From: an uncultured Poribacteria bacterium
Lineage (GTDB): Bacteria > Poribacteria > WGA-4E > WGA-3G
DNA length: 64,000 nt
Direction: 5' to 3'
NCBI GenBank assembly: GCA_951813565.1
Contig: OX638351.1
Span: forward strand, 4,960,001-5,024,000
Position numbers and translations under genes: made by a program. Positions 47,300-62,498 of the stretch are shown one piece after another (positions within the stretch are counted from its first letter, which is position 1; the number at the start of each line of letters is the position of its first letter). Under the pieces are notes generated by a model. That model made no database searches. It was not told the origin of the DNA and saw nothing but the letters and a program-made list of their open reading frames with translations.

Positions 47300-47355
47300 G
47301 CTATTTAGAGATTGTGGGCGGGTTTCAATGTCCGTCCACGCTAATTATATCTAAA

Positions 47356-49773
47356 ATGACAACCGAAGCCGAAGCACGTCAAATCATAGATAGCATGCTG
47401 GAAGAGTCTGGATGGCAGATTCAAAATTATGCTGAACGTGCAACAGATGCTTCTCTTGGTGTTGCTGTCCGTGAATATCCGTTAAGGTTTAATCAGAGAG
47501 CAGATTACCTTCTCTTTATCGGTGGCGTGGCAGTTGGCGTTATAGAAGCCAAATCAGAAGGAACAACACTTAGTGGAGCCCTCCAACAAGCAGAACGGTA
47601 TCGAGCAAATTTGCCAAATGATTTGCCCAACCGCACCAGATTTTTCTATTCTTATGCGTCAACAGGGATTGAGACATACTTTCGTGATTTTCGAGACCCG
47701 GATTCACGTTCTCGACAAGTCTTTATATTTCATACACCTCAAGCACTTTTTAATGCTTTCAATCAACCTCAAACGTTGCGAGAGAGACTCAAAACAGGGA
47801 TGCTGCCATTAAAAAAAGACAACTTGAGAGTTTGTCAATTTGAGGCGATAAGGCAGCTTGAGAGATCTTTGGCAGAAGCACGTCAGCGTGCTTTAATTCA
47901 GATGGCAACAGGCAGCGGAAAAACTTATGTCGCTGTCAGCAGTGTATACCGACTCATCAAATTTGCTAACGTCAAACGGGTTATTTTTCTGGTAGACCGT
48001 AACAATCTCGGTAGACAAGCTCTGCGTGAGTTTCAAAATTACACGACTCCCGATGATGGCAGGAAATTTACTGAACTCTACAACGTTCAACACCTTTCCA
48101 GCAATGTTATTGACGAAACAAGCTCGGTTTGTATTACCACTATCCAACGTCTTTACGCAATGTTGACAGGTGAACCCGACTATGAATCGGACGATGAGGA
48201 AAGTTCCGATTTTGAACAGGAAACTGAAGATTCACCTCCACAAGAAGTTGTCTATAATCCGAACATTCCTATTGATACGTTTGACCTTATCATCGTTGAT
48301 GAATGTCACCGCTCTATCTACGGTAAGTGGCGGCACGTATTAGAATACTTTGACGCTTTCATTCTCGGTCTCACTGCTACGCCATATAACCAAACGCTCA
48401 ATTTTTTCAATCAGAATCTTGTTTATGAATACCGTCACGAACAGGCTATTCAAGACGATGTAAATGTCGGTTATTATGTCTATCGGATTAAGACTGAAAT
48501 TACAGAAAGTGGTAGCACAGTTGCGGAGGGGAGTTATGTTGCAAGACGGGATAGGGTTAGTCGAAGACTTACCTGGGAGGAGTTGGATGAAGATGAAGAA
48601 TACACAGGAAATCAGTTAGACCGGGAGGTTGTGGCAGAAGACCAGATTCGGACAGTTATTCAGACTTTCAAGGATAAACTCAGGACAGAACTCTTTCCGA
48701 GTAGGACGATTGTTCCCAAAACACTTATCTTTGCAAAAGACGACTCGCATGCCGAGGATATTGTCAAAATTGTTCGGGAGGTATTTGCCAAAGGCGATGA
48801 TTTCTGCCAAAAGATTACCTACCAGAGCGATAGACCGGAAGACCTTATCAGAAGATTCCGCACAGACCCGATTTTCCGAATCGCTGTGAGCGTTGATATG
48901 ATTTCTACTGGCACCGATATTAAACCGCTTGAGTGTTTAGTCTTTATGCGTTCTGTCCGTTCAAGCGGGTATTTTGAGCAGATGAAGGGGCGCGGTATGC
49001 GTACTATTAAACCTGAAGATTTGCGATCTGTCACAGGTGATGCGACTGCAAAAACGCACTTCATTATTGTTGATGCTGTCGGTGTGTGTGAATCCATCAA
49101 AACTGATTCCCAGTCACGTCCAGGTGAGCCATCTTCTAATGGATCAAACGGACCACCAGAAAGAAACCCCGACCAACTCATGGATGATGTAAGCATAGAC
49201 CGTGTTATTGAAACCGGGTTTGAGCCTGAAAGTTTTGCACAAGCATCTACAGTGATCCACGACTTCAAGCGGTTTATTAATGAACACATAGCTGAATTGC
49301 CAGCGTTACAAATTTTGTGTGAACGTCCAGAAGCACAAGGCACACTGACTGAAAACAACTTAAAAGAGCTGGAAGAAGCATTGCAACAGCATTCCAGCAG
49401 TCTCAGTCGTGAGTCATTATGGATGGCTTATAAAAGACGGTCACCAGAGAACGTTCATGGAACCACAAAACGACGGACAGACCTTATATCACTGGTGCGT
49501 TTTGCCATGGGGTATACTCGTATTTTAGAACCGTTTAGTGCAATCGTCACCCGACATTTTGGAGAATGGTTAGAGGGTAAAGATTTCACACCAGAACAAG
49601 TCAACTGGCTTGAATGGATTCAGGAATACATTGCCACATCACTCGGTTTTCGAATAACTGATTTTGAGTACACACCTTTTGCACAGCGTGGCGGTGTAGC
49701 AAGAGCCATGCAACTCTTTGGTGATGAGTTGGAGGATATGCTAAAAGATCTTACAGAGAAATTGGTTTCTTAA
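47356..49773 (+). CDS. hsdR: Type I restriction-modification restriction subunit (EcoEI/EcoAI-like)
   Basis: Nuclease motif ADYLL...VIEAK, helicase motifs MATGSGKT, FLVDR, DECH, GLTATP and QMKGRG, and a C-terminal region FT.EQ..WL..I..YI. Confidence 0.92.
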   Translation: MTTEAEARQIIDSMLEESGWQIQNYAERATDASLGVAVREYPLRFNQRADYLLFIGGVAVGVIEAKSEGTTLSGALQQAERYRANLPNDLPNRTRFFYSYASTGIETYFRDFRDPDSRSRQVFIFHTPQALFNAFNQPQTLRERLKTGMLPLKKDNLRVCQFEAIRQLERSLAEARQRALIQMATGSGKTYVAVSSVYRLIKFANVKRVIFLVDRNNLGRQALREFQNYTTPDDGRKFTELYNVQHLSSNVIDETSSVCITTIQRLYAMLTGEPDYESDDEESSDFEQETEDSPPQEVVYNPNIPIDTFDLIIVDECHRSIYGKWRHVLEYFDAFILGLTATPYNQTLNFFNQNLVYEYRHEQAIQDDVNVGYYVYRIKTEITESGSTVAEGSYVARRDRVSRRLTWEELDEDEEYTGNQLDREVVAEDQIRTVIQTFKDKLRTELFPSRTIVPKTLIFAKDDSHAEDIVKIVREVFAKGDDFCQKITYQSDRPEDLIRRFRTDPIFRIAVSVDMISTGTDIKPLECLVFMRSVRSSGYFEQMKGRGMRTIKPEDLRSVTGDATAKTHFIIVDAVGVCESIKTDSQSRPGEPSSNGSNGPPERNPDQLMDDVSIDRVIETGFEPESFAQASTVIHDFKRFINEHIAELPALQILCERPEAQGTLTENNLKELEEALQQHSSSLSRESLWMAYKRRSPENVHGTTKRRTDLISLVRFAMGYTRILEPFSAIVTRHFGEWLEGKDFTPEQVNWLEWIQEYIATSLGFRITDFEYTPFAQRGGVARAMQLFGDELEDMLKDLTEKLVS

Positions 49774-49912
49774 TTCTGCTTTTTAATAGGCACCTCTGGG
49801 CGCGATTGCTTGTCTAAAACGCTTGAATTCGCATACAGTTTGTGCTAAAATAAAAACTGTGCGGTGTCTGTTTTATCACAATTTTGAAAACACGTCAGAG
49901 AGGTATCTGAAA

Positions 49913-52900
49913 ATGCCAACACCAACACCAAAAGAGGTTTTTGATAATCCTTTACAATATCTTAATTTCCTACAATCCGACAAATTTGAAGGGCAATATT
50001 TCGAGCGGAATGAGGTCCGGCTTGAGAAAAACCAGATTAATGTGTTGAAAGATAGCATTAAGCCTTGTCTATCTGCATTCGCAAATACAAACAAAGAGGG
50101 AGGATTAGTTGTCCTGGGTATTGCTAACGACGGTACTATCAAAGGGATTCAGCACGTTGATGAACAGAAACTTAACGAAATATTGCAAGTTAGAGAATCT
50201 TTAAAAAACCACGTGACGGATCCAAAACATGTCAGTCTGCAAGATCCTAATAAGAACCAATTATATCTTTTATATACACATGAGACACCAAATGCAATTT
50301 GTGAAACAACAGGAGTTTTTCCAAAAGCTTGGAAAAGAGTTGGACCTCAGAATCGTCCTATGACTGAACAAGAACGGGATCAGTTAAAACGGAACAAAAA
50401 AATAGTTGATTTTGAGAACACCTATTGCTGTCCGCACGATCCTAATGAACTTGACGAAGGAGTGGTTGAAGAATTTAAGAAGGCTTTTCTTGAAGAGAGA
50501 GGTGCCCAGTACGGTCATAGCACCGAAGAAGTTCTATACCAAGCAGGTGCACTCATTAAAACGGAAGAAAATGGAAAATATGTGATTAACAATGCTGGTT
50601 ATCTATTTTTTTCCTCAAACCCTCGCAAGCGTTTTGGAAGCGCATTCGTAAGGTTACTACGTTATGATGTCCGCGCTGAAGAGTTAAGAAACCGTGGCGG
50701 AATGACTTTAGATAAAGATTTTGACGGTCCTCTTCCAAACATTATTCGTGGCCTTCGGAGCTTTTTAAAAGATTCCGCACTTTTTCGGATTTTGTCAAAA
50801 CGGAATCCTGATGGTGGATTCACTGATGAACCCGAATTTCCTTTCATAGCAGTTGATGAAGCACTCGTTAACGCCATTGTACATAGAGAATATGCTGTTA
50901 CTACACCAATTTTCTGTATTGTTTATAGAGATAAATTGGAAGTTAGAAATCCAGGAGACATACCACAGTCTGTTCCTAAGAAATTTAGTCTTGATGAACA
51001 AAGCTTAGACCCTGTGCCTCGGAATCCGAAAATTGTTGAGTGGATGCGTATCATGAAAGATGAGAGAGGTTCCATTTTTGTTCATGGATTGAGTGAAGGT
51101 ACTAGACGAATGAAGGAAGAGATGGAAAATTTGGGATTACCGGCTCCACACTATCATACAGATCAATACACAACCGTCACACTCTACAGTAAATTTGATG
51201 AACGCTTGGAAAAGTATACTCTAAAAACGGTCACTGAAACACAAGAATATGCTAATCTTTTTCCAATTGAACAGTCAAGAGAAAGAATGTCACGAAGCGA
51301 ATTTATAGAAGTTCGTGGAAATATACTCACAGCGATTAAAGACGCGCTCTTAAACCACGGATGGTTTATAGACCGTTTTTCATTTGGTCGCATCGTTGCC
51401 CATCGACAAGGTACATCCTTGTCCCTATCTCCTCAAGTTAAAGCTGTTGTACAAATATATCCAGCGTATGAATTACAAATTAGACAGTACGCTGAAGATC
51501 TCTATCTATGTGTTGATTACAAAGCTGAGTTGAAAAATATTCTGAAAGTAGGCTCTTTGCTTGATTACTTTACTGTTGATGATTTAGTTGGTAAACATGC
51601 TGTGGCAAAATACTCTGGACAATGGGAACGCGGAGAAATCTTAGAAATCGACTCGGAAACTACTAAATTAGCATTGTCTGATTTAGACACGGAAGTGAAT
51701 ATTCCAAATAATGATGTTATTCCATCCATTGGGAAAACTGCAATTAAAAAGATTTTGACAAAGAAAAACATAGCTCACGATCTTGATCAAAAAATTAAGG
51801 AACACGCTTTAGTGTCGCAGAGGAATGCTGCTAAAACCCGCGCTGAAAAAACTATCAGGATCGTTCAACATCTTGCCGATGAAGTGTTCCCTATTACAGT
51901 CAACAACTTAACACTTAAGTTGTCTAAAATCCCAGCTTCTCTAAAAACACCTCTATCTGGAGGTTCCTCGCAAGATGTTAAGCCTCTCACTGTGTTTCAT
52001 GAATCCGAGGAACCTTCAGTTCAATTCTATAATGACAAGGTTGATGCCAACATATTAGAAGGATTAACAAAATATAGTTCTTACGATGCAGGTATAAAAG
52101 ATATTGAGTTAATCCCTATTTGTACTCCGGATCTACGTGGGGGGATGCGGCAGCTAATTGAGAGACTTAAACATGGAAAATACAAATATCGCGGTACTGA
52201 ATGGACTTTTAAGACAAAGCTAACTTATCCTAATGTCAACCCAGCACCTATAGAAGAATTTCAAAGTGAATGTGTTCGATTATTAGAAGAGAATCCTAAT
52301 TGGATAGGAAACAAAGATTTGAATCGGCTTTTCCTTGTGTATGTTCCAGAAGACAGGTTCCCAATCACCGATCTCAATTCTCCATACTACACAATTAAGG
52401 AATTTCTGTTATCTAAAGGAATTCCTGTCCAAATGGTGGACACGCCTATTCTTAAGAATCCTGATTGGAAGGATTTCAATCTTGCTTTGAACATCACTGC
52501 GAAATGCGGTGTCGTCCCTTGGGTTTTACCAGGCGCATTACCAGATGCTGATTTCTTTGTTGGTTTGTCATATACCCAACATCCTGATAGGAAAATAGAC
52601 AGACACATGGCGTTTGCTAATGTGTTCAGTAATTTTGGACGCTGGAAATTCTACCAAGGAAATGCTAAACCGTTTAATTATGATGAGAGACACGAATACT
52701 ACAAAGTACTCGTCCGATCAACGTTGGAAAGGCTTGACCTTCGCGAATCTCCATCAATACATTTTCACTACTCAGCGAAGTTTTCTGCGGAAGACATATC
52801 TGCAATTTTGGAAGCTGCAAAATTAGTTCGCCCGAATGGTAGATATACATTTGTATGGATAAATAGTTCACATATCGTTCGGTTTTACGATCCATCTCCA

Positions 52901-53254
52901 CAAACAGATGGAAGTTTACAACGTGGTAAATACGTGATTGGCTGGCCTAAACAATTCTATTTATCAACTACTGGCTATAATACTTACCATAAGTCACTTG
53001 GCACTCCCCATCCTCTTGAAGTTAATGTATGGACTGAACCTTACGATCCCTCAAATCCACCGGATCTGAGAGTTGTTGCCAAGCAATTAATCTCTCTGAC
53101 AAAGTTGAATTGGGCATCAACCCGTTCATTTTGTGGCACGCCTATCACCATAAAATACGCACGTGACATTGCCCGTTTTGCATCGGCGTTTATTGAGCGT
53201 AGCGGAAAGTTTGAACTACATGAAGTCTTGGAGAAAACCCCATGGTTCATCTAA
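49913..53254 (+). CDS. Schlafen/AlbA_2 + HATPase_c_4-like + long prokaryotic Argonaute fusion (PIWI catalytically inactive), ~1113 aa
   Basis: AlbA_2 motifs EGQYFER and LSAFANT..GGLVVLGI.NDG. HATPase_c_4-like motifs EALVNAIVHREY, LEVRNPG, RNPKI and SEGTRRM. MID motifs YYTIK, GIPVQMV and LNITAKCG. PIWI motifs PWVL...FFVGLSY, HFHYSAK, RGKY, LTKLNW and PITIKYA, ending TPWFI. GAGAGG precedes the ATG at 49913. Confidence 0.85.
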   Translation: MPTPTPKEVFDNPLQYLNFLQSDKFEGQYFERNEVRLEKNQINVLKDSIKPCLSAFANTNKEGGLVVLGIANDGTIKGIQHVDEQKLNEILQVRESLKNHVTDPKHVSLQDPNKNQLYLLYTHETPNAICETTGVFPKAWKRVGPQNRPMTEQERDQLKRNKKIVDFENTYCCPHDPNELDEGVVEEFKKAFLEERGAQYGHSTEEVLYQAGALIKTEENGKYVINNAGYLFFSSNPRKRFGSAFVRLLRYDVRAEELRNRGGMTLDKDFDGPLPNIIRGLRSFLKDSALFRILSKRNPDGGFTDEPEFPFIAVDEALVNAIVHREYAVTTPIFCIVYRDKLEVRNPGDIPQSVPKKFSLDEQSLDPVPRNPKIVEWMRIMKDERGSIFVHGLSEGTRRMKEEMENLGLPAPHYHTDQYTTVTLYSKFDERLEKYTLKTVTETQEYANLFPIEQSRERMSRSEFIEVRGNILTAIKDALLNHGWFIDRFSFGRIVAHRQGTSLSLSPQVKAVVQIYPAYELQIRQYAEDLYLCVDYKAELKNILKVGSLLDYFTVDDLVGKHAVAKYSGQWERGEILEIDSETTKLALSDLDTEVNIPNNDVIPSIGKTAIKKILTKKNIAHDLDQKIKEHALVSQRNAAKTRAEKTIRIVQHLADEVFPITVNNLTLKLSKIPASLKTPLSGGSSQDVKPLTVFHESEEPSVQFYNDKVDANILEGLTKYSSYDAGIKDIELIPICTPDLRGGMRQLIERLKHGKYKYRGTEWTFKTKLTYPNVNPAPIEEFQSECVRLLEENPNWIGNKDLNRLFLVYVPEDRFPITDLNSPYYTIKEFLLSKGIPVQMVDTPILKNPDWKDFNLALNITAKCGVVPWVLPGALPDADFFVGLSYTQHPDRKIDRHMAFANVFSNFGRWKFYQGNAKPFNYDERHEYYKVLVRSTLERLDLRESPSIHFHYSAKFSAEDISAILEAAKLVRPNGRYTFVWINSSHIVRFYDPSPQTDGSLQRGKYVIGWPKQFYLSTTGYNTYHKSLGTPHPLEVNVWTEPYDPSNPPDLRVVAKQLISLTKLNWASTRSFCGTPITIKYARDIARFASAFIERSGKFELHEVLEKTPWFI

Positions 53255-54681
53255 CTCCAATTTCTGGTGATTTGCCAAAAGGGTGGGTGTGGACAACATT
53301 AGAAGAAATTGGTGAAATCATATTAGGGCAATCCCCTCCGTCTTCTACCTACAATACAGATGGAGACGGACTCCCTTTTTATCAAGGTAAACTTGAATTC
53401 GGGAAACTCTATCCTGCACCTCGAAAATGGTGTACCGCTCCGAAGAAAATTGCTGAAAAAGGGGACGTTTTCATTTCTATTCGCGCGCCTGTAGGACCTA
53501 CAAATATTTGCCCCGAAAAATCTGCTGTGGGAAGAGGACTCGCAGCAATTCGCGGGTTAGGCGGAATTGAGTCGTTTTTCATTCTTTATTTAATGCATGC
53601 CTATGCAAATAAGATTGCAAGCAGAGGAACGGGGACAACTTTTGATGCAATTACGGGAAACCAACTTAAGACATTTGAAATCCCACTTCCACCACTGACA
53701 GAACAACGCCGCATCGTAGCCAAGTTAGAGATACTATTTACACATTTAGACGCAGCAGTTGAAAACCTCAAAAAAGCACAAGTGCAGTTGCAGCGGTATC
53801 GTCAATCAGTTCTCAAAGCTGCTTTTGAAGGGGAGTTGACGAGGGAGTGGCGAGAAGGGTATTCGGGTGAATTAGAACCGATGTCGGTTTCAGAAGTTTC
53901 TGAGATGGACAATTTACCTGAGCTGCCTGATGGTTGGGTGTGGACGAAGGTTAAGGACATTTCAGAATTTATTCGCGGTGTGTCCTATAAAAAGAATCAA
54001 TCATCTAAAACCCCAATAGATGATTATGTTCCTATATTGCGGGCGAACAATATCAATACACAATTGAACTATGAAGACCTTGTTTATGTTCAGCGAGAAA
54101 AGGTTAAAGATGAACAATTTGTAAAGATTTATGATATTATCATCGCGATGTCGAGTGGTAGTAAACACCTCGTAGGTAAAGCAGCGCAAGCTTATCAGGA
54201 TTTTGAAGGGGGTTTTGGCACTTTTTGTGGGTTGGTCAGAGTTTCGGAAGAAGTAAATAAAAAATTCATTGGTTTATTTTTCCAAAGTCCTGTTTATAGA
54301 AATGAAATATCTCGTCTCTCTATTGGAATAAACATCAATAACCTTCGGAGAGAAAACATAGAGACAATGCTTATACCGCTTCCACCGCTTGCCGAACAGG
54401 AACAGATTGTCTCTGAACTTGAGCGGCACCTTTCAGTCGCTGATGCGGCAGAGGCAACCCTTGATGCCGCACTGAAGCGCGCGGAACGTTTGCGGCAGTC
54501 TATCCTCAAACATGCGTTTTCTGGTAAACTTGTTCCGCAAGACCCGAACGATGAACCGGCAAGCGTGTTGCTTGAGAAAATCAGAGATGAGAAAGATCAG
54601 CAACAACCAAAGCGAAAAAAGACTACAACAAAATCGAAAAACACATCTTCGGCACAGCAATTGTCCCTTCCACTTGACTAA
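53242..54681 (+). CDS. hsdS: Type I restriction-modification specificity subunit
   Basis: LPKGWVW and LPDGWVW start two target-recognition domains. Conserved helices PLPPLTEQRRIV and PLPPLAEQEQIV, and AFSGKLVPQDPNDEPASVLLEKI. Confidence 0.93.
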   Translation: MVHLTPISGDLPKGWVWTTLEEIGEIILGQSPPSSTYNTDGDGLPFYQGKLEFGKLYPAPRKWCTAPKKIAEKGDVFISIRAPVGPTNICPEKSAVGRGLAAIRGLGGIESFFILYLMHAYANKIASRGTGTTFDAITGNQLKTFEIPLPPLTEQRRIVAKLEILFTHLDAAVENLKKAQVQLQRYRQSVLKAAFEGELTREWREGYSGELEPMSVSEVSEMDNLPELPDGWVWTKVKDISEFIRGVSYKKNQSSKTPIDDYVPILRANNINTQLNYEDLVYVQREKVKDEQFVKIYDIIIAMSSGSKHLVGKAAQAYQDFEGGFGTFCGLVRVSEEVNKKFIGLFFQSPVYRNEISRLSIGININNLRRENIETMLIPLPPLAEQEQIVSELERHLSVADAAEATLDAALKRAERLRQSILKHAFSGKLVPQDPNDEPASVLLEKIRDEKDQQQPKRKKTTTKSKNTSSAQQLSLPLD

Positions 54682-54800
54682 ACTAAAGTTGAAACTTCGT
54701 TTTGTTTTTAATGCAGATTTATGGTAAAATATCAATGTAAAGCAACTGTACAATCTGTTCATTAAAAGTTTTAATTTAAGTTTTTAAGGAAATATTAGAG

Positions 54801-55085
54801 ATGACACTTAAGATTACAGACTGCACGGATAGAGATGAAAAAACGCGGGAGACCGATCCGCTTCTCGCATTAGCAGGTACGCTTAAATGGAATAATATAA
54901 GTGGCCCCAACGCCGTATTGATACCGGAAATACTCGTGATTAAAGGCGCACACGAAGATCACCCGGATCCGCTCATCGCCTTGCTGGGAACGTTGGAATG
55001 TGATGTCACAGACATCGGCGAACGTCACGATGATTATATCAGAGACGCACTTTTAGCAGAATTATGGGGAAATGAAGATGAATGA
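54801..55085 (+). CDS. Small acidic antitoxin-like hypothetical protein with an internal repeat
   Basis: Repeat DPLLALAGTL / DPLIALLGTL and C-terminal DIGERHDDYI. Confidence 0.55.
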   Translation: MTLKITDCTDRDEKTRETDPLLALAGTLKWNNISGPNAVLIPEILVIKGAHEDHPDPLIALLGTLECDVTDIGERHDDYIRDALLAELWGNEDE

Positions 55086-55119: not shown

Positions 55120-55533
55120 ATGAAAACTGAAGAAAAAGAACATAATCTCCCTCTACCGCCAGCAGATAAAACACTATTTCGCAAACAAGTGCAGCGCGAA
55201 TTAGACGAAATTCGACAAGAAGCTGAGGAGGCTTATACCTTGGATAACGAGATTGATCCTGTGCCGGATTCGGCTTACAATGACACGCTTGTTTTGTTAA
55301 AGTTCCTTTGTAATTACAATCTGCCCATGCCAGATTTTAGTTGGGCAGAAGATGGTAGCCTTAGTGTTGGGTGGTACCCAGATAATGGCATGGTAACAAT
55401 GGGAATATATGGGGACAATCTTGTCATCTATAATGCATTTTTTGAAGAAAAACGTCAATTTGAAGGAATCTGTGAACTGTCAGATACCGCGGTGTTGTCA
55501 GGTTTTCTCACAACGTTGGCAAATATCCTCTAA
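55120..55533 (+). CDS. Hypothetical protein, module gene A copy 1
   Basis: Paralogous to 58521-58919 and 59120-59539 (P..AYN..L.L...PMP..W.EDG....W.P...LYGD..V.Y..FF). Confidence 0.75.
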   Translation: MKTEEKEHNLPLPPADKTLFRKQVQRELDEIRQEAEEAYTLDNEIDPVPDSAYNDTLVLLKFLCNYNLPMPDFSWAEDGSLSVGWYPDNGMVTMGIYGDNLVIYNAFFEEKRQFEGICELSDTAVLSGFLTTLANIL

Positions 55534-55547
55534 TAAGGATTGTTGTT

Positions 55548-55967
55548 ATGAATGTTTCACCGGGTGAGACACTCACTCGTTTTATTCGTTATAACAGTCA
55601 TTTTTCCGTTGTAACTAACAGAGTTAAACCTGACGCTTTTCTTCCACACAGAAAGCGTATTGATGTATCCGTGTTTCGCATTTCCGAACTCAATGACAGT
55701 GAAAAACTCTCAGAAAACGAGATATGGCAAATTGGGCGGGAATATGTTCAAACAGAAGAAAGACTGATAAAGGCAAGGGCTGATCTTTTGGCTGCCGTTG
55801 TTTATCAGAATAATCTTGAAGTTGTTCCAGATGAGCCGCCTCAAAGGCACGCGAACATAACGCCTTTTCCGATAGAGAAAAGTCCTACAGACAGGAAAGC
55901 ACGTAGATCCATCGCAACGAAACTTGCTAACGCAAGTAAATTAGCTGTTCAACCAGAAAAGATATGA
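55548..55967 (+). CDS. Hypothetical protein, module gene B copy 1 (possible ART/RES-like fold)
   Basis: Paralogous to 59550-59954 (L.RFI...HFS...VK..AF.P...SVF...EIW.IGR.YVQT.ER..KARADL...L.VVPD..P..HANIT.FP). Confidence 0.75.
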   Translation: MNVSPGETLTRFIRYNSHFSVVTNRVKPDAFLPHRKRIDVSVFRISELNDSEKLSENEIWQIGREYVQTEERLIKARADLLAAVVYQNNLEVVPDEPPQRHANITPFPIEKSPTDRKARRSIATKLANASKLAVQPEKI

Positions 55968-55996: not shown

Positions 55997-57463
55997 ATGT
56001 CCAACGAATCCACAACAATCGTTCAAAAACTATGGAATTTCTGCAATGTGCTCCGAGATGATGGGGTCAGTTACGGAGATTACGTGGAGCAACTCACGTA
56101 TCTGCTTTTTCTCAAACTCGCTGATGAACAGCGCAACCTACCTACTAACACATCAACTCAAATCCCTGCTGGTTTGGATTGGGAAAGTTTACTCAAAGAG
56201 AGTGGTGCTGCGTTAGAAGAGCAGTATGTTAAAACCCTTCGTGAATTGAGTAATGAGAAAGGGTTGCTTGGTGTTATTTTTAGAAAATCGCAAAACCGCA
56301 TTCAGACACCCGCGCACCTCCAACGACTTATCAAGCTTATTGATGCCGAAAACTGGAGCGGAATGGCAGCCGATGTCAAAGGCACAATTTACGAGGGACT
56401 TTTACAGAAAAACGCTGAAGACACCAAAAGCGGTGCAGGGCAGTACTTCACACCTCGTCCACTCATCAAAGCGATAGTAGCTGTAATGCAACCTAAACCG
56501 ATGAAAACGATCTGCGATCCTGCATGCGGCACAGGCGGTTTTTTCCTCGCTGCTTATGAGTATATATCCGAAACATATCGCACAACATTAACTCGTGAAC
56601 AGAAGAAGTTCCTCAGATTTGATACTTTCGCCGGAACAGACATCGTTGATAACGTAGTCCGTCTCTGTGTTATGAATCTATATCTGCACGGTATTGATGG
56701 GGAGGAAAGTCCAATTACAACCAACGATAGTCTCGGCAAAGATCCGGGAGAACGTTACGATATGGTGCTGACCAATCCACCGTTTGGTAACAAGAGTAGT
56801 GTTACAATCACTACTGATGGCGAAAAACGTAGCAACGCATCCGTCACGTATGAACGCGATGATTTTTGGGCGACAACTTCAAATAAACAGTTTAACTTCC
56901 TACAGCACATTAAGACAATTTTGAAGGAAAATGGTCGCGCCGCTGTGGTACTACCTGATAACGTTCTCTTTGAACGTGGCGCGGGTGAAACAATTCGCAG
57001 GCAACTGCTAAAACTGTTTGATGTCCATACCTTGTTACGATTGCCTACTGGTATTTTCTACGCGCAAGGTGTAAAGGCAAACGTTCTCTTTTTCGACAAA
57101 CGTCCGGCACGTGAGGAACCGTGGACACAAAAACTTTGGATATACGATCTCCGTACAAATAAACGTTTTACGCTTAAGACGAATCCCTTACGCGATGCCG
57201 ACCTACAGGATTTTATTACTGCCTATAATCCAAAGAACCGTCACGAACGGGTTGAAACTGAACGTTTTCACGCCTTCACTTACGAGGAACTTACCAAGCG
57301 GGAACATGTTAACCTTGATATTTTCTGGTTGAAAGAGGATTCACTTGAAGATATAGCAGACCTTCCCACGCCTGATGTATTAGCGGGGGAAATCACACAG
57401 AATTTAGAGACTGCTTTGGGATTGTTTCAGAATATTCAGACAGAATTAGGTGACAGTGACTAA
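55997..57463 (+). CDS. hsdM: Type I restriction-modification N6-adenine methyltransferase
   Basis: KLWNFCNVLRDDG, GQYFTPR, DPACGTGGF, LTNPPFG and LRLPTGIFYAQGVKAN motifs. Confidence 0.95.
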   Translation: MSNESTTIVQKLWNFCNVLRDDGVSYGDYVEQLTYLLFLKLADEQRNLPTNTSTQIPAGLDWESLLKESGAALEEQYVKTLRELSNEKGLLGVIFRKSQNRIQTPAHLQRLIKLIDAENWSGMAADVKGTIYEGLLQKNAEDTKSGAGQYFTPRPLIKAIVAVMQPKPMKTICDPACGTGGFFLAAYEYISETYRTTLTREQKKFLRFDTFAGTDIVDNVVRLCVMNLYLHGIDGEESPITTNDSLGKDPGERYDMVLTNPPFGNKSSVTITTDGEKRSNASVTYERDDFWATTSNKQFNFLQHIKTILKENGRAAVVLPDNVLFERGAGETIRRQLLKLFDVHTLLRLPTGIFYAQGVKANVLFFDKRPAREEPWTQKLWIYDLRTNKRFTLKTNPLRDADLQDFITAYNPKNRHERVETERFHAFTYEELTKREHVNLDIFWLKEDSLEDIADLPTPDVLAGEITQNLETALGLFQNIQTELGDSD

Positions 57464-58432: not shown

Positions 58433-58520
58433 TCGGTCTATGTGTTCTAAATAAGCAGTCGCGTCTTCATCTGGTAGAGACATTGAGGCGCGCCTGCATA
58501 GTAATAGGTTGGTAAAAATT

Positions 58521-58919
58521 ATGCAATTACATCTTGAGATGCCGCAGGCAGATGAGGGGACGTTCCGATATAGTATCAAACGCGAATTAGCGGAACTATA
58601 TAAAAAAGAAGATGGAGTGTATGCAAAGGATAGCATAATTGATGCTATGCCTGAGTCAGCATATAATGATGCCCTCTTTTTGCTTGAGTTTCTTTTTAAT
58701 TCGGGTGTTCCTATGCCAAACATCAATCGGACAAAACACGGTAGCCTCAGCTTAAGTTGGTATCCTGAAGAAGGTACAGCGAAGATGGAACTCTGTGGTG
58801 ATGGACTTGTTGTCTATAATGCATTTTTCGATGAAGATCGTCAGGATGAAGGTGCTTGTGTTTTGACAGATATTGCTGCGCTGGATGAACTTCTTGGCGC
58901 GTTGCGCTGCGTTTTTTGA
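58521..58919 (+). CDS. Hypothetical protein, module gene A copy 2 (no partner B)
   Basis: PESAYNDALFLL...VPMPNI...HGSLSLSWYP...GDGLVVYNAFF. Confidence 0.65.
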   Translation: MQLHLEMPQADEGTFRYSIKRELAELYKKEDGVYAKDSIIDAMPESAYNDALFLLEFLFNSGVPMPNINRTKHGSLSLSWYPEEGTAKMELCGDGLVVYNAFFDEDRQDEGACVLTDIAALDELLGALRCVF

Positions 58920-59119: not shown

Positions 59120-59539
59120 ATGGATACCTCACACTCACAAAAAGAACCTGATTTTGCTCGGTCCCCTGCTGACAAGATACTGTTTCTAAAACATGTCCAA
59201 AGCGAATTAGGCGAAATTCGTGAGGAAGTTGAAGAAACTTGTGCAGTGACTACCGACGTTATACCTGTACCGGAACAGGCTTATAATAATACATTATCTT
59301 TGATGGAACAGATGCCCGATGACATACCGATGCCAGACATGATGTGGTTGGAAGATGGTGGTATTGGATTAGAATGGAGGCCAGGAGAAGGTATCGCAAC
59401 AATAAGTCTATACGGTGACGGAAACGTTATTTACGGTATTTTTTTTAGTGATAAGTGTGAGACTAGTGGAATCTGTGCCTTGTCAAACTATGCACTTCTC
59501 CATGGATTTCTTACGACGTTAAGCCTACTCTTTCAATAA
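59120..59539 (+). CDS. Hypothetical protein, module gene A copy 3
   Basis: PADKILFLKHVQSELGEIREE...PEQAYNNTL...PMPDMMWLEDGGIGLEWRP...GFLTTL. Confidence 0.75.
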   Translation: MDTSHSQKEPDFARSPADKILFLKHVQSELGEIREEVEETCAVTTDVIPVPEQAYNNTLSLMEQMPDDIPMPDMMWLEDGGIGLEWRPGEGIATISLYGDGNVIYGIFFSDKCETSGICALSNYALLHGFLTTLSLLFQ

Positions 59540-59549
59540 AGGATACGGT

Positions 59550-59954
59550 ATGGATTTATCGAGAGGCGATATTCTTAGTCGCTTCATTTTTTCTAAAAGA
59601 CACTTTTCAATAGAAAATTCGACTGTCAAATATGGAGCATTTATTCCGCCTCCAAATAGTGCTGATTTATCTGTGTTTTCTGTTTCATCCCTTACTAACA
59701 GCGAAATATGGGAAATCGGACGTAAATATGTCCAAACGAATGAAAGAAAACTAAAGGCAAGAGCCGATCTTCCTGTTGAAAAAGTTTATGCTGTTAATCT
59801 AAAAGTTGTCCCAGATACTCAACCTCACGAACTACATGCCAATATCACATCTTTTCCATTAGACAAGAGGGAGCGTACTGATCTTGCAAGAAAACTTGCA
59901 GTCGTTAGTAGGTTGGAAATTATACCACCTGAAGATACTGATTCTGATCGTTAA
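59550..59954 (+). CDS. Hypothetical protein, module gene B copy 2
   Basis: LSRFIFSKRHFS...AFIPP...LSVFSV...EIWEIGRKYVQTNERKLKARADL...HANITSFP. Confidence 0.75.
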   Translation: MDLSRGDILSRFIFSKRHFSIENSTVKYGAFIPPPNSADLSVFSVSSLTNSEIWEIGRKYVQTNERKLKARADLPVEKVYAVNLKVVPDTQPHELHANITSFPLDKRERTDLARKLAVVSRLEIIPPEDTDSDR

Positions 59955-60041: not shown

Positions 60042-62498
60042 ATGAAAAGCGACGCGCACGCTTCCAAAGCGCGCCTACCGGAAGATATAGTATCTATTAT
60101 TGAAAACATCCTCGGTTGCAAACTTGAAGATGTAACTGTAGGAATGGATTTTACCCCTGATGCCCTACAAACCCTCCTCACCACGCCCCCTACAGACTCT
60201 CTTGAAAACTATCTTACACCACAATGGGTAGTGCTTGCTGCTGGCAAAGGCACTCGCATTGATCCTACAGGACGATTGAGCAAGACGTTGGACATTATGT
60301 TCGGCGGGCAGAACATGCTGCAATGGTCATGTCGTTTTCTGCCGGGCAACCGTCCACATATTGTTGTTATCAACCCACAAATGGCAACCCGAATAGCCGA
60401 AAGTGGATCACCTGAACAGTTGTTAGGTGAAAATGCGATTCCTTGTATCCAACAAGAAATGAACGGTACTGGTGGTGCGTTGCAAGCGGCACTGCCTGCA
60501 CTTCGCGATTCTGATGCCGAATGGATCGGCGTAGCATTTGGCGATGAACCTTTTTTACAAAGAGCCATCTTTGCACAAACGTTGCTATCTCATTTTCTTT
60601 CTGGTGCGGATGTGACACTATGTGGTAAGATACCTGAAACAGTGGTTGATAAAGGCGGTCTCTTTTTTGATGCAGATGGCAAATTTATTGGCACAAAAGA
60701 GTGGTATGATATGACAGAGCCTGAAAAAGCAGGGATGTGGCAACGTTTGGAGCGTGGTGAGGCATATACCAATACCGGTATCACGATTATCCGAAAAAGT
60801 GTATTGTTGGAACGGATAGATCAGTTGGAACCGCACACGAACCGAAACGGTGAACTCCATCACGTTGATCTGATTCGTCTCTGTTATGAAGATGGCTTGA
60901 AAACAAACGCTTATATCTATCGTGGTGGTGTGTTGTCAGGCGTTAATCGTTGGTCAAACGTTTTATCAGGTGAAGATGTAATGTTTAAACAGACCAGGGA
61001 ATTCCTTGCACAGAAAGGTGTCCGTGTTGATCCATCAGCGCAGATAACGTTGGATAGTGAAGATATTGAGATCGGCACTGCATGCTATCTTATCGGCAGA
61101 ATACATATCGGAAAAGGTGTGAAGATAGCGGATTATTGTAGACTTGAAAATGTCACACTGCGCAGTGCTACAAGCGTTGGAGCTTCCGTTGGGCTGCAGA
61201 ATGTGTCTGCAAAGGATACAACATTTGAATCAAATCAGTTACCTGCAACTTTGGCAAAACCTGTTAGTGGAATTGCAACTGTCAGCACAGTAAAAAATTG
61301 CACTTTTGATGCAGTTACAGTAGGAAGCAGCGTTCAACTTTCAGATATTCAAGCACATGCAACTGTGATATCATCAAACATTAAACTAAAAAATCAAACG
61401 TTAGGTGTACCACTTGCAGAATCACCACTGGGTGTGCCGAGACCGCTTTTCAACCAAATTATTCCTGCAGATTATAGACCAGGTGTTTTTACTTTTGGCG
61501 AAAAGAAGGATTTGCCAGATTGGGAGAACCTTCGGAAGCATGTTAGTTCGCATAGTGCTACGGAGTTGATTCCGCGTGCGACGCGCAATTCACAATTGCA
61601 ACAAGTTGTGTGCAACGCAGTAGATATGCTTTTGGACATGCGGCGTGCAAATGGAGATTATCTGATTGAAGCCCTCACACCTGAAGAACTGTGGGGAACT
61701 ATCTTTGAGATGGTGAAACTGTATACTGGTAACCCGAATCCTTATCATCACGATAAACTAAAAGCACGCCGGACTGCACTTGCACTTCTGCCAGAATTTT
61801 GGAACGATGATTGGTTAACACGGTTAAAGCTTGTTGTTGCAGGGAATGTGATTGATTACAGCAGTGCTCGGGTAGTCCAAAAAGTGAATGCTAATCCTGA
61901 CTATTTTTCTGAAGCACTAAGTGCAGCGGTTGATACACCTTTTGCCATTGATTGTTATGAACTGTTCCATGAGAAAGTTATTGATGCTTTTCCTCAGCAG
62001 ATTGTGTGGCTTGCAGACAACGATGGCGAAATCATTTTTGATGTTGCTTTCATTCAGGACCTCGTTCAATGTGGACATCGTCTATGTATAGTAGGAAAAA
62101 CCGATAACGCAAGCAACGACGTTACGTTGACAGATTTGCATGATATTACAAACTATCCACAATTTGAAGAACTTCAACGCGCAATGCAAGATGGGGTTGT
62201 TACGCTGATGTCGTCAGGCGCTAAGACGATCGGGACCAATCTTTATAATGCTACACCCGAATTTATTAATGCATTATTAGACGCTGACCTTGTTATATCT
62301 AAGGGACAAGGCAATTTCTTCACGACACCGGGATGGCATAAAGATACCTTTTATCTCCTTCTCTCCAAAGGTATGACAGCTGAGCGAAGCACAGGTGTTA
62401 TAGCGGATAAAAATCTGCCAGTTGATGGACTTATTTTGGGGTATCTGCCGAGTGGAACAAAACGGGTTGCAACGTTACGAGACCTATGTAATCCTTGA
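60042..62498 (+). CDS. Fusion of a GlmU-like nucleotidyltransferase, a left-handed beta-helix-like region and a DUF89/ARMT1-like metal-dependent phosphatase
   Basis: N-terminal VVLAAGKGTRI, QQEMNGTGGA and GDEPF. Hexapeptide-like IEIGTACYLIGRIHIGKGVKI. C-terminal GNVIDYS, LADNDGEIIFD, NDVT and ISKGQGNF. Confidence 0.78.
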   Translation: MKSDAHASKARLPEDIVSIIENILGCKLEDVTVGMDFTPDALQTLLTTPPTDSLENYLTPQWVVLAAGKGTRIDPTGRLSKTLDIMFGGQNMLQWSCRFLPGNRPHIVVINPQMATRIAESGSPEQLLGENAIPCIQQEMNGTGGALQAALPALRDSDAEWIGVAFGDEPFLQRAIFAQTLLSHFLSGADVTLCGKIPETVVDKGGLFFDADGKFIGTKEWYDMTEPEKAGMWQRLERGEAYTNTGITIIRKSVLLERIDQLEPHTNRNGELHHVDLIRLCYEDGLKTNAYIYRGGVLSGVNRWSNVLSGEDVMFKQTREFLAQKGVRVDPSAQITLDSEDIEIGTACYLIGRIHIGKGVKIADYCRLENVTLRSATSVGASVGLQNVSAKDTTFESNQLPATLAKPVSGIATVSTVKNCTFDAVTVGSSVQLSDIQAHATVISSNIKLKNQTLGVPLAESPLGVPRPLFNQIIPADYRPGVFTFGEKKDLPDWENLRKHVSSHSATELIPRATRNSQLQQVVCNAVDMLLDMRRANGDYLIEALTPEELWGTIFEMVKLYTGNPNPYHHDKLKARRTALALLPEFWNDDWLTRLKLVVAGNVIDYSSARVVQKVNANPDYFSEALSAAVDTPFAIDCYELFHEKVIDAFPQQIVWLADNDGEIIFDVAFIQDLVQCGHRLCIVGKTDNASNDVTLTDLHDITNYPQFEELQRAMQDGVVTLMSSGAKTIGTNLYNATPEFINALLDADLVISKGQGNFFTTPGWHKDTFYLLLSKGMTAERSTGVIADKNLPVDGLILGYLPSGTKRVATLRDLCNP

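Follow-up and report, generated by a model that had tools for sequence, protein, structure and literature searches.

An SLFN-pAgo gene from an uncultured Poribacteria bacterium with asparagine in place of the catalytic Schlafen lysine

Does a guide-directed Argonaute still command a working effector when the nuclease fused to it carries asparagine in place of its catalytic lysine? This question is raised by a gene in a 64,000-nucleotide stretch of DNA (hereafter the window; GenBank assembly GCA_951813565.1, contig OX638351.1, positions 4,960,001 to 5,024,000 of the forward strand) from an uncultured Poribacteria bacterium. Its single open frame encodes a Schlafen/AlbA_2 domain, a GHKL ATPase (HATPase_c_4) and a slicer-dead long-B Argonaute, and the product almost certainly belongs to the Schlafen-containing prokaryotic Argonautes (SLFN-pAgos), which include RzAgo of Runella zeae. 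The answer that we regard as probable, if only just, is a protein on the RzAgo plan whose nuclease is likely blunted or dead, that is, an allele that is disarmed or of low toxicity, within a putatively recombining Poribacteria defence cassette. The parts of the gene, in window coordinates, are as follows.

49913..53254, plus strand: SLFN-pAgo gene (protein P0001), one open frame with its ATG at 49913, 1113 amino acids (aa).
49925..50407, plus strand: Schlafen/AlbA_2 domain, aa 5-165 (Pfam PF04326; SLFN11 and SLFN12 fold matches).
49988..50011, plus strand: Schlafen catalytic strand E26-x4-E31-x-N33, with the Asn codon AAT at 50009-50011; it aligns with D32 and K34 of RzAgo.
50393..51226, plus strand: GHKL ATPase region, aa about 161-438 (Pfam PF13749; histidine-kinase fold matches).
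51239..53251, plus strand: Argonaute core, aa 443-1113 (L1, PAZ, L2, MID, PIWI); RsAgo is the top match in Foldseek (E 3e-28) and VIA-align (Z 31.6).

Active Schlafen nucleases carry the motif E(x)4(D/E)xK, which is described as a conserved Schlafen motif (PMC13056530). The window protein departs from it in having Asn33 at the place of the lysine, while the SAFAN box (aa 54-58, 50072-50086) and the GGLVVLGI segment (aa 63-70) are present. Replacement of this lysine by alanine inactivates human SLFN11 (PMC9482658), pig SLFN11 (PMC10359600) and the bacterial Schlafen Cash (PMC13462974), and RzAgo retains it as K34; a sequence-only reading of the locus, made without database searches, had doubted nuclease activity on the grounds that the motif reads ERN, and this doubt was justified. 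Residue counts given here and below refer to 121 proteins, the query plus the top 120 of 555 matches. Among the full-length relatives with a residue at position 33, lysine occurs in 111 of 117 and asparagine in six. Shorter relatives show the same preference (Lys 87, Asn 3, Met 1 and unreadable 3 among 94), as do eight further HsdS fusions (Lys 7, Thr 1); the other losses of lysine are a Thr in the HsdS fusion P0379 and a Met in the fragment P0368. At the DNA level, the Asn pattern was found in one of 176 genomes of the phylum, the window's own, and a metagenome scan for Asn-allele DNA returned two loci, one of them close. Since the catalytic lysine is Asn33, the Schlafen nuclease is probably weakened or inactive. 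A Schlafen-ATPase partner acting in trans was considered as a substitute and is unlikely, because the genome itself encodes only two distant paralogues (24-27% identity).

Considering that the genome was apparently assembled from a metagenome (its relatives are metagenome-assembled genomes) and that the locus is mosaic, the fusion or the Asn codon could in principle be an assembly chimera or a sequencing error. The chance of this is negligible. Contig L118, from a different assembly, is base-for-base equal to 49913-52920, with the same fusion and the Asn codon included. Single contigs of two sequencing runs also cover the gene: a Logan contig of run X1, which is possibly the source of the window DNA, carries the entire stretch without a change, and a contig of run X4, which belongs to a different study, covers 49811-53600. 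Most of the 120 best relatives align over the full length. A chimera, which the sequence-only reading had named as grounds for abandoning its proposal, is thus ruled out.

That reading had also claimed the three-part architecture itself, and Pfam, PADLOC, a PDB search and the fold matches of an AlphaFold2 model agree with it. Pfam recovers SLFN_AlbA_2 at E 5e-10 over aa 44-151 and HATPase_c_4 at E 4e-10 over aa 334-423; each exceeds the gathering score. The expected Piwi match did not appear in the Pfam scan, but the Argonaute part was recovered by other routes: the PADLOC full-length pAgo model PDLC02394 (1474 bits), the PDB sequence search, in which RsAgo is the best match (aa 808-1090, E 8e-7), a profile search, in which EcAgo is the best solved relative (E 1e-20), and the structural model. 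The latter, built from a 44-row alignment with a mean predicted local distance difference test score of 85, resembles RsAgo across aa 443-1113 (Z 31.6, 616 aligned, root-mean-square deviation 4.8), pig SLFN11 over aa 5-165 (Z 10.6, 137 aligned, deviation 4.7), SLFN12 in the Schlafen domain (Z 10.1) and histidine-kinase ATP domains over aa about 236-438 (Z 8.3-8.8, middling by the tool's own grading).

The family itself is known. SLFN-pAgos have been described as 78 long-B proteins of 1071-1187 aa that form a monophyletic group, defined by PF04326 and PF13749 ahead of a tetrad-less Argonaute (Kuzmenko et al., bioRxiv 10.64898/2026.05.29.728809), and Schlafen-fused long pAgos were counted as early as 2018 (10.1101/366930). 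The window protein has the SLFN domain followed by the GHKL ATPase, with the Argonaute core on the same chain and a length of 1113 aa. It is colinear with RzAgo (WP_028663822.1, locus L115, recovered by the family search outside the 80 relative loci kept), with only 32 gap columns and 461 of 1126 aligned columns identical (41%) from end to end; RzAgo itself lacks a canonical N domain (bioRxiv 10.64898/2026.05.29.728809). In an IQ-TREE phylogeny of the MID-PIWI region (67 hand-picked rows, midpoint root, without a long-A outgroup), 42 SLFN-pAgos form one branch (support 100/99), and RzAgo and the window protein share a 20-row branch within the tree (support 97/96). The expected long-B placement is supported. 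The closest named relatives among the 80 loci kept are Candidatus Poribacteria proteins (70-85%).

Whether the guide-binding and ATPase parts of the allele still look functional was assessed residue by residue. The positions quoted from the bare sequence hold: E26 (49988), E31 (50003), N33 (50009), E316 (50858), Y825 (52385), S886 (52568) and H952 (52766), with K829, Q840 and K864 also in place and G884 at 52562 by counting. The elements of the Argonaute core that matter here are the following.

52385..52504, plus strand: MID 5'-end pocket Y825, K829, Q840 and K864, each in 119/119 proteins with a residue there.
52568..53164, plus strand: degenerate PIWI tetrad; three of its four catalytic places are occupied by S886, by H952-Y-S954-A955 (without Asp) and by R1084.
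53174..53176, plus strand: R1088 instead of Y1086, the 5'-adenine contact of RzAgo, by alignment to RzAgo.

The MID pocket is intact, as had been proposed. Residues of RzAgo map onto the window protein as D32 to E31, E314 to E316, N318 to N320, Y828 to Y825 and K832 to K829; for RzAgo D72, the counterpart is N72 in one alignment and D73 in another. The ATPase residues E316 (50858) and N320 (50870) occur in 120/120 proteins with a residue there, and the window protein shows no departure at 202 conserved core columns. Loss of the PIWI tetrad, also proposed earlier, is supported by profile alignment, which shows no acid at three of the four catalytic places: aligned to the long-A CpAgo, the GLD Asp falls on S886 and the YAD Asp on the R1084 column, and H952-Y-S954-A955 replaces the HRDG motif. 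On the basis of these residues, the sensor and ATPase of the allele look intact. One difference lies at position 1088, where the 121 proteins have Arg in 46, Tyr in 73 and a gap in two; Arg is confined to the 48 closest proteins (46 of 48, the remaining two being cut short). Guide preference for a 5' adenine may therefore differ from that of RzAgo.

For RzAgo, 5'-A RNA guides, DNA targets, guide-induced filaments and ATP-driven tetramers have been reported; target recognition triggers tRNA cleavage, and phage protection requires D32 and E314 (bioRxiv 10.64898/2026.05.29.728809). This is essentially the mechanism that the sequence-only reading had proposed, in which guide-target pairing activates a Schlafen RNase, possibly ATP-gated, and leads to abortive infection. 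By extension from the residues it keeps, the core of the window protein would load short 5'-phosphorylated RNA guides and recognise complementary DNA without cutting it. The likeness to RzAgo covers domain order, length, dead PIWI, MID Tyr/Lys, ATPase Glu/Asn, SAFAN box and clade; the differences are K34 to Asn33, Tyr1086 to Arg1088, the basic patch K46/K47 to L45/K46, and a canonical E26 where RzAgo has His27. The long-B proteins RsAgo (PDB 5awh, 6d8a) and EcAgo (PDB 23wq) have a similar slicer-dead core and give the best sequence and fold matches, but lack a fused Schlafen-ATPase and are about 16-17% identical to the window protein; effectors of long-B pAgos are described as separate proteins in the introduction of the same preprint. 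The bacterial Schlafen tRNases Cash (PMC13462974) and RorSlfn5 (PMC13056530) and human SLFN11 (PMC9482658) share the fold and the E-x4-(D/E) metal ligands, whereas they sense through Csx15/cA4, through an Ig-like domain or through a helicase, and Cash and SLFN11, where tested, need the motif lysine that is missing here.

The history of the Asn allele was traced in the Schlafen domain itself. Asparagine at position 33 occurs in nine proteins, which represent eight distinct Schlafen domains that are 76-100% alike (average identity 84%). All eight nevertheless share an identical 11-residue strand, FEGQYFERNEV, whereas 12 Lys domains of the same subclade have ten versions of the catalytic strand. 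When the strand is left out, a clade of Asn domains is rejected (approximately unbiased test, p 2.4e-5; 5 changes). Because the strand is identical on domains that do not form a clade, it appears to move by recombination, in either or both directions, which suggests a recombining patch. P0281, whose Schlafen domain is 90% identical to that of the window protein, retains E-R-K. If the patch does move, recombination could remove or restore the lysine in the cassette and so re-arm the protein. Comparing the eight Asn with the 12 Lys domains, only E31 is linked to Asn, so that no compensating basic residue is visible.

Several observations weigh against a blunted nuclease, and against the recombination of its strand. 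Clustering of Asn on the trimmed tree was matched or exceeded in 53 of 500 shuffles (about 1 in 10). The Asn domains are not decaying: of their 61 variable sites, three lie on 31 conserved columns, compared with six of 71 in Lys domains. The ratio of nonsynonymous to synonymous substitution rates (dN/dS) of the Schlafen domain is 0.12-0.18 against four Lys-bearing relatives, and that of the other domains 0.10-0.16. This fits an active enzyme, but also a structural role or a recently arrived patch; conservation of the remaining Schlafen domain may also be older than the Asn. The uniform strand could reflect constraint on a working E-x4-E-x-N site. RzAgo is active despite His27 at the place of the first acid (its Glu24 lies three places earlier), so that the pocket tolerates change. 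All substitutions tested at the lysine were to Ala, and no Lys-to-Asn mutant was found in the Schlafen literature passages available; in the main text of bioRxiv 10.64898/2026.05.29.728809, the terms 'K34', 'lysine', 'asparagine' and 'PrrC' are absent.

These observations lead to a rival explanation, a fully working SLFN-pAgo in which E26, E31 and D73 (or N72) would bind metal, Asn33 together with Arg32/Arg36 would suffice, and tRNA would be cut on target recognition. It gains from the preservation of all other conserved Schlafen columns, bar Asp-to-Glu at 31 and the start residue, from the recurrence of Asn on differing backgrounds, from a gene that is whole and under purifying selection relative to its relatives, and from the displaced first acid of RzAgo. 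The inactivity of Lys-to-Ala mutants of three Schlafens, the predominance of lysine in full-length and short relatives alike and the single Asn-bearing genome of the phylum tell against it, and we consider it possible but on the whole doubtful.

The surroundings of the gene raise the question of whether the protein needs its nuclease at all. The gene lies within a type I restriction-modification (R-M) operon, in the order hsdR, SLFN-pAgo, hsdS, with hsdM downstream.

47314..49773, plus strand: hsdR, type I restriction subunit whose C terminus is of the EcoEI type (Pfam HSDR_N, ResIII, EcoEI_R_C; PADLOC REase_I).
52921..53122, plus strand: 200-base PIWI block, with 45 base differences, 11 amino acid differences and dN/dS 0.06 between the window and an otherwise identical allele.
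53242..54681, plus strand: hsdS, type I specificity subunit (Pfam Methylase_S twice).
55997..57463, plus strand: hsdM, type I methyltransferase (Pfam N6_Mtase, HsdM_N; PADLOC MTase_I, E 5e-197).

The probable start of hsdR is Met15 (47356), and the nuclease and helicase motifs of HsdR and the catalytic motifs of HsdM are present. A promoter scan marked a site at 49823-49851, but it found 34 sites against 31.7 expected and hence gives no evidence for a promoter. As to expression, no RNA data set was listed as carrying the gene. A scan of the phylum at E 1e-20 or better matched 62 of 176 genomes, 13 of which have an unbroken full-length gene: eight close ones (69-100%) and five of a second lineage (46-49%).

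The tRNase PrrC is held in check by an R-M complex. In a comparable arrangement, the window protein would be a nuclease-independent partner of type I restriction, with the Schlafen-ATPase docking on HsdS/HsdR and the guided Argonaute recruiting the restriction enzyme to the DNA of invaders; alternatively, the Schlafen domain would be restrained by the R-M complex, as PrrC is. The literature search returned no paper tying PrrC, type I restriction and Schlafen together. Local gene order speaks for such a partnership: hsdS directly follows the gene in seven of the eight close full-length relatives of the phylum, its first ATG overlaps the final 13 bases of the SLFN-pAgo gene, and the slot may also hold a Schlafen-ATPase alone, in tandem with an SLFN-pAgo or fused to HsdS. 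Of about 40 loci that hold a Schlafen-ATPase alone, 17 were fetched; 13 of these 17 have hsdR or hsdS within 1.5 kb, two of them being fusions. However, no R-M gene was found at one of the eight close relatives (L006), which occupies the same slot, the codons for Pro-Trp-Phe-Ile dictate the overlapping ATG, which exists even where hsdS does not follow, and the available text of bioRxiv 10.64898/2026.05.29.728809 reports no conserved partner and describes RzAgo as protecting alone. Among 74 more distant loci, hsdR/hsdS homologues were found in two (divergent type I families could escape), and at this sensitivity the link between SLFN-pAgos and R-M genes is local. Such a partnership is therefore, in our estimate, unlikely. 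Of the Schlafen homologues collected in one study, over half have been reported to adjoin R-M and other nuclease systems (PMC13462974).

The preferred reading, a protein on the RzAgo plan with a probably impaired nuclease, places the gene in a slot between hsdR and hsdS that appears to be a variable, recombining defence cassette. Identity to relatives jumps between domains, and the block at 52921..53122 is most simply read as a recombined patch. L118 differs from the window in this block, in 54250-55000 and in a few scattered bases; the second of these regions, covering the C-terminal part of hsdS together with the small gene that follows it, is strongly different between two otherwise near-identical sequences. 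Short patches, including the catalytic strand, the PIWI block and parts of HsdS, would thus be exchanged between Poribacteria strains. At L121 (8112-8264), all that remains of an SLFN-pAgo is its final 51 codons (92% identical), before hsdS and about 4.6 kb from hsdR, and this fragment is a remnant of cassette replacement. A stand-alone Schlafen-ATPase stands in tandem before the SLFN-pAgo in three of six close named loci (L036, L037, L038), where mixed tetramers of the two proteins are possible; these named loci overlap the phylum set, and the counts are not independent. The Poribacteria Schlafen-ATPases ('Schlatpase', AlbA_2 plus HATPase_c_4, stand-alone or HsdS-fused) occupy the same slot after hsdR. 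Their N-terminal 430 aa are 56-69% identical to the window protein, with some Schlafen domains reaching 80-92%, but they lack an Argonaute and nearly all retain the lysine. An operon that combines SLFN-pAgo with R-M genes has already been published from Poribacteria, as have homologous operons whose Schlafen-ATPase is alone or fused to HsdS (bioRxiv 10.64898/2026.05.29.728809). Family, mechanism and operon are thus in print, and the gene as such is not new.

Other neighbours and relatives show further variation. Small genes of two families, in pairs of 137 and 139 aa, are repeated at 55120-55967, 58509-58919 and 59120-59954; the copies are 33-48% alike, and their number varies among relatives in the gap between hsdS and hsdM. 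They gave no Pfam match, and the two tested gave no NCBIfam match; PADLOC matched the last pair weakly to PDC-M32A and PDC-M32B (E about 1e-3), and the gene at 55548 falls into unnamed Atlas clusters. A toxin-immunity-like role for the pairs is a guess. An 818-aa protein at 60042-62498, with weak matches below the cut-off to GlmU at its N terminus and to damage-control phosphatase at its C terminus, marks the right-hand edge of the cassette, which is constant among close relatives. Among more distant proteins, P0164 (1199 aa) is a fusion of an ADP-ribosylglycohydrolase domain (PF03747, aa 23-361) with a long-B Argonaute core that branches beside the SLFN-pAgo clade; the literature search returned nothing on such a fusion, and this protein of a single contig may be either a genuine effector fusion or the product of misjoining. 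P0174 (981 aa) has the Schlafen-ATPase fused to leucine-rich repeats, a different sensor on the same module. Four cyanobacterial SLFN-pAgos of about 1180 aa (L076, L078, L081 and L083, match start 8001), whose Schlafen domain does not align with that of the window protein, are probably the second SLFN clade of bioRxiv 10.64898/2026.05.29.728809.

Beyond the published family, interest remains in the catalytic lysine and its recurrent loss. In a further scenario, which we consider quite improbable, the allele would be nuclease-dead, spread and kept by recombination of the catalytic strand, and would act as a non-suicidal, ATP-switched, RNA-guided DNA sensor. If this were true, the protein would be a guide-programmable adaptor for restriction, working with the surrounding type I enzyme. 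The Arg-for-Tyr change bears directly on 5' guide preference, and the slot between hsdR and hsdS is a place where effector and sensor parts are apparently swapped among close relatives. The Lys-to-Asn allele, with P0281 as its matched control, constitutes a natural experiment on the need for lysine in SLFN-pAgos and on the persistence of disarmed effectors.

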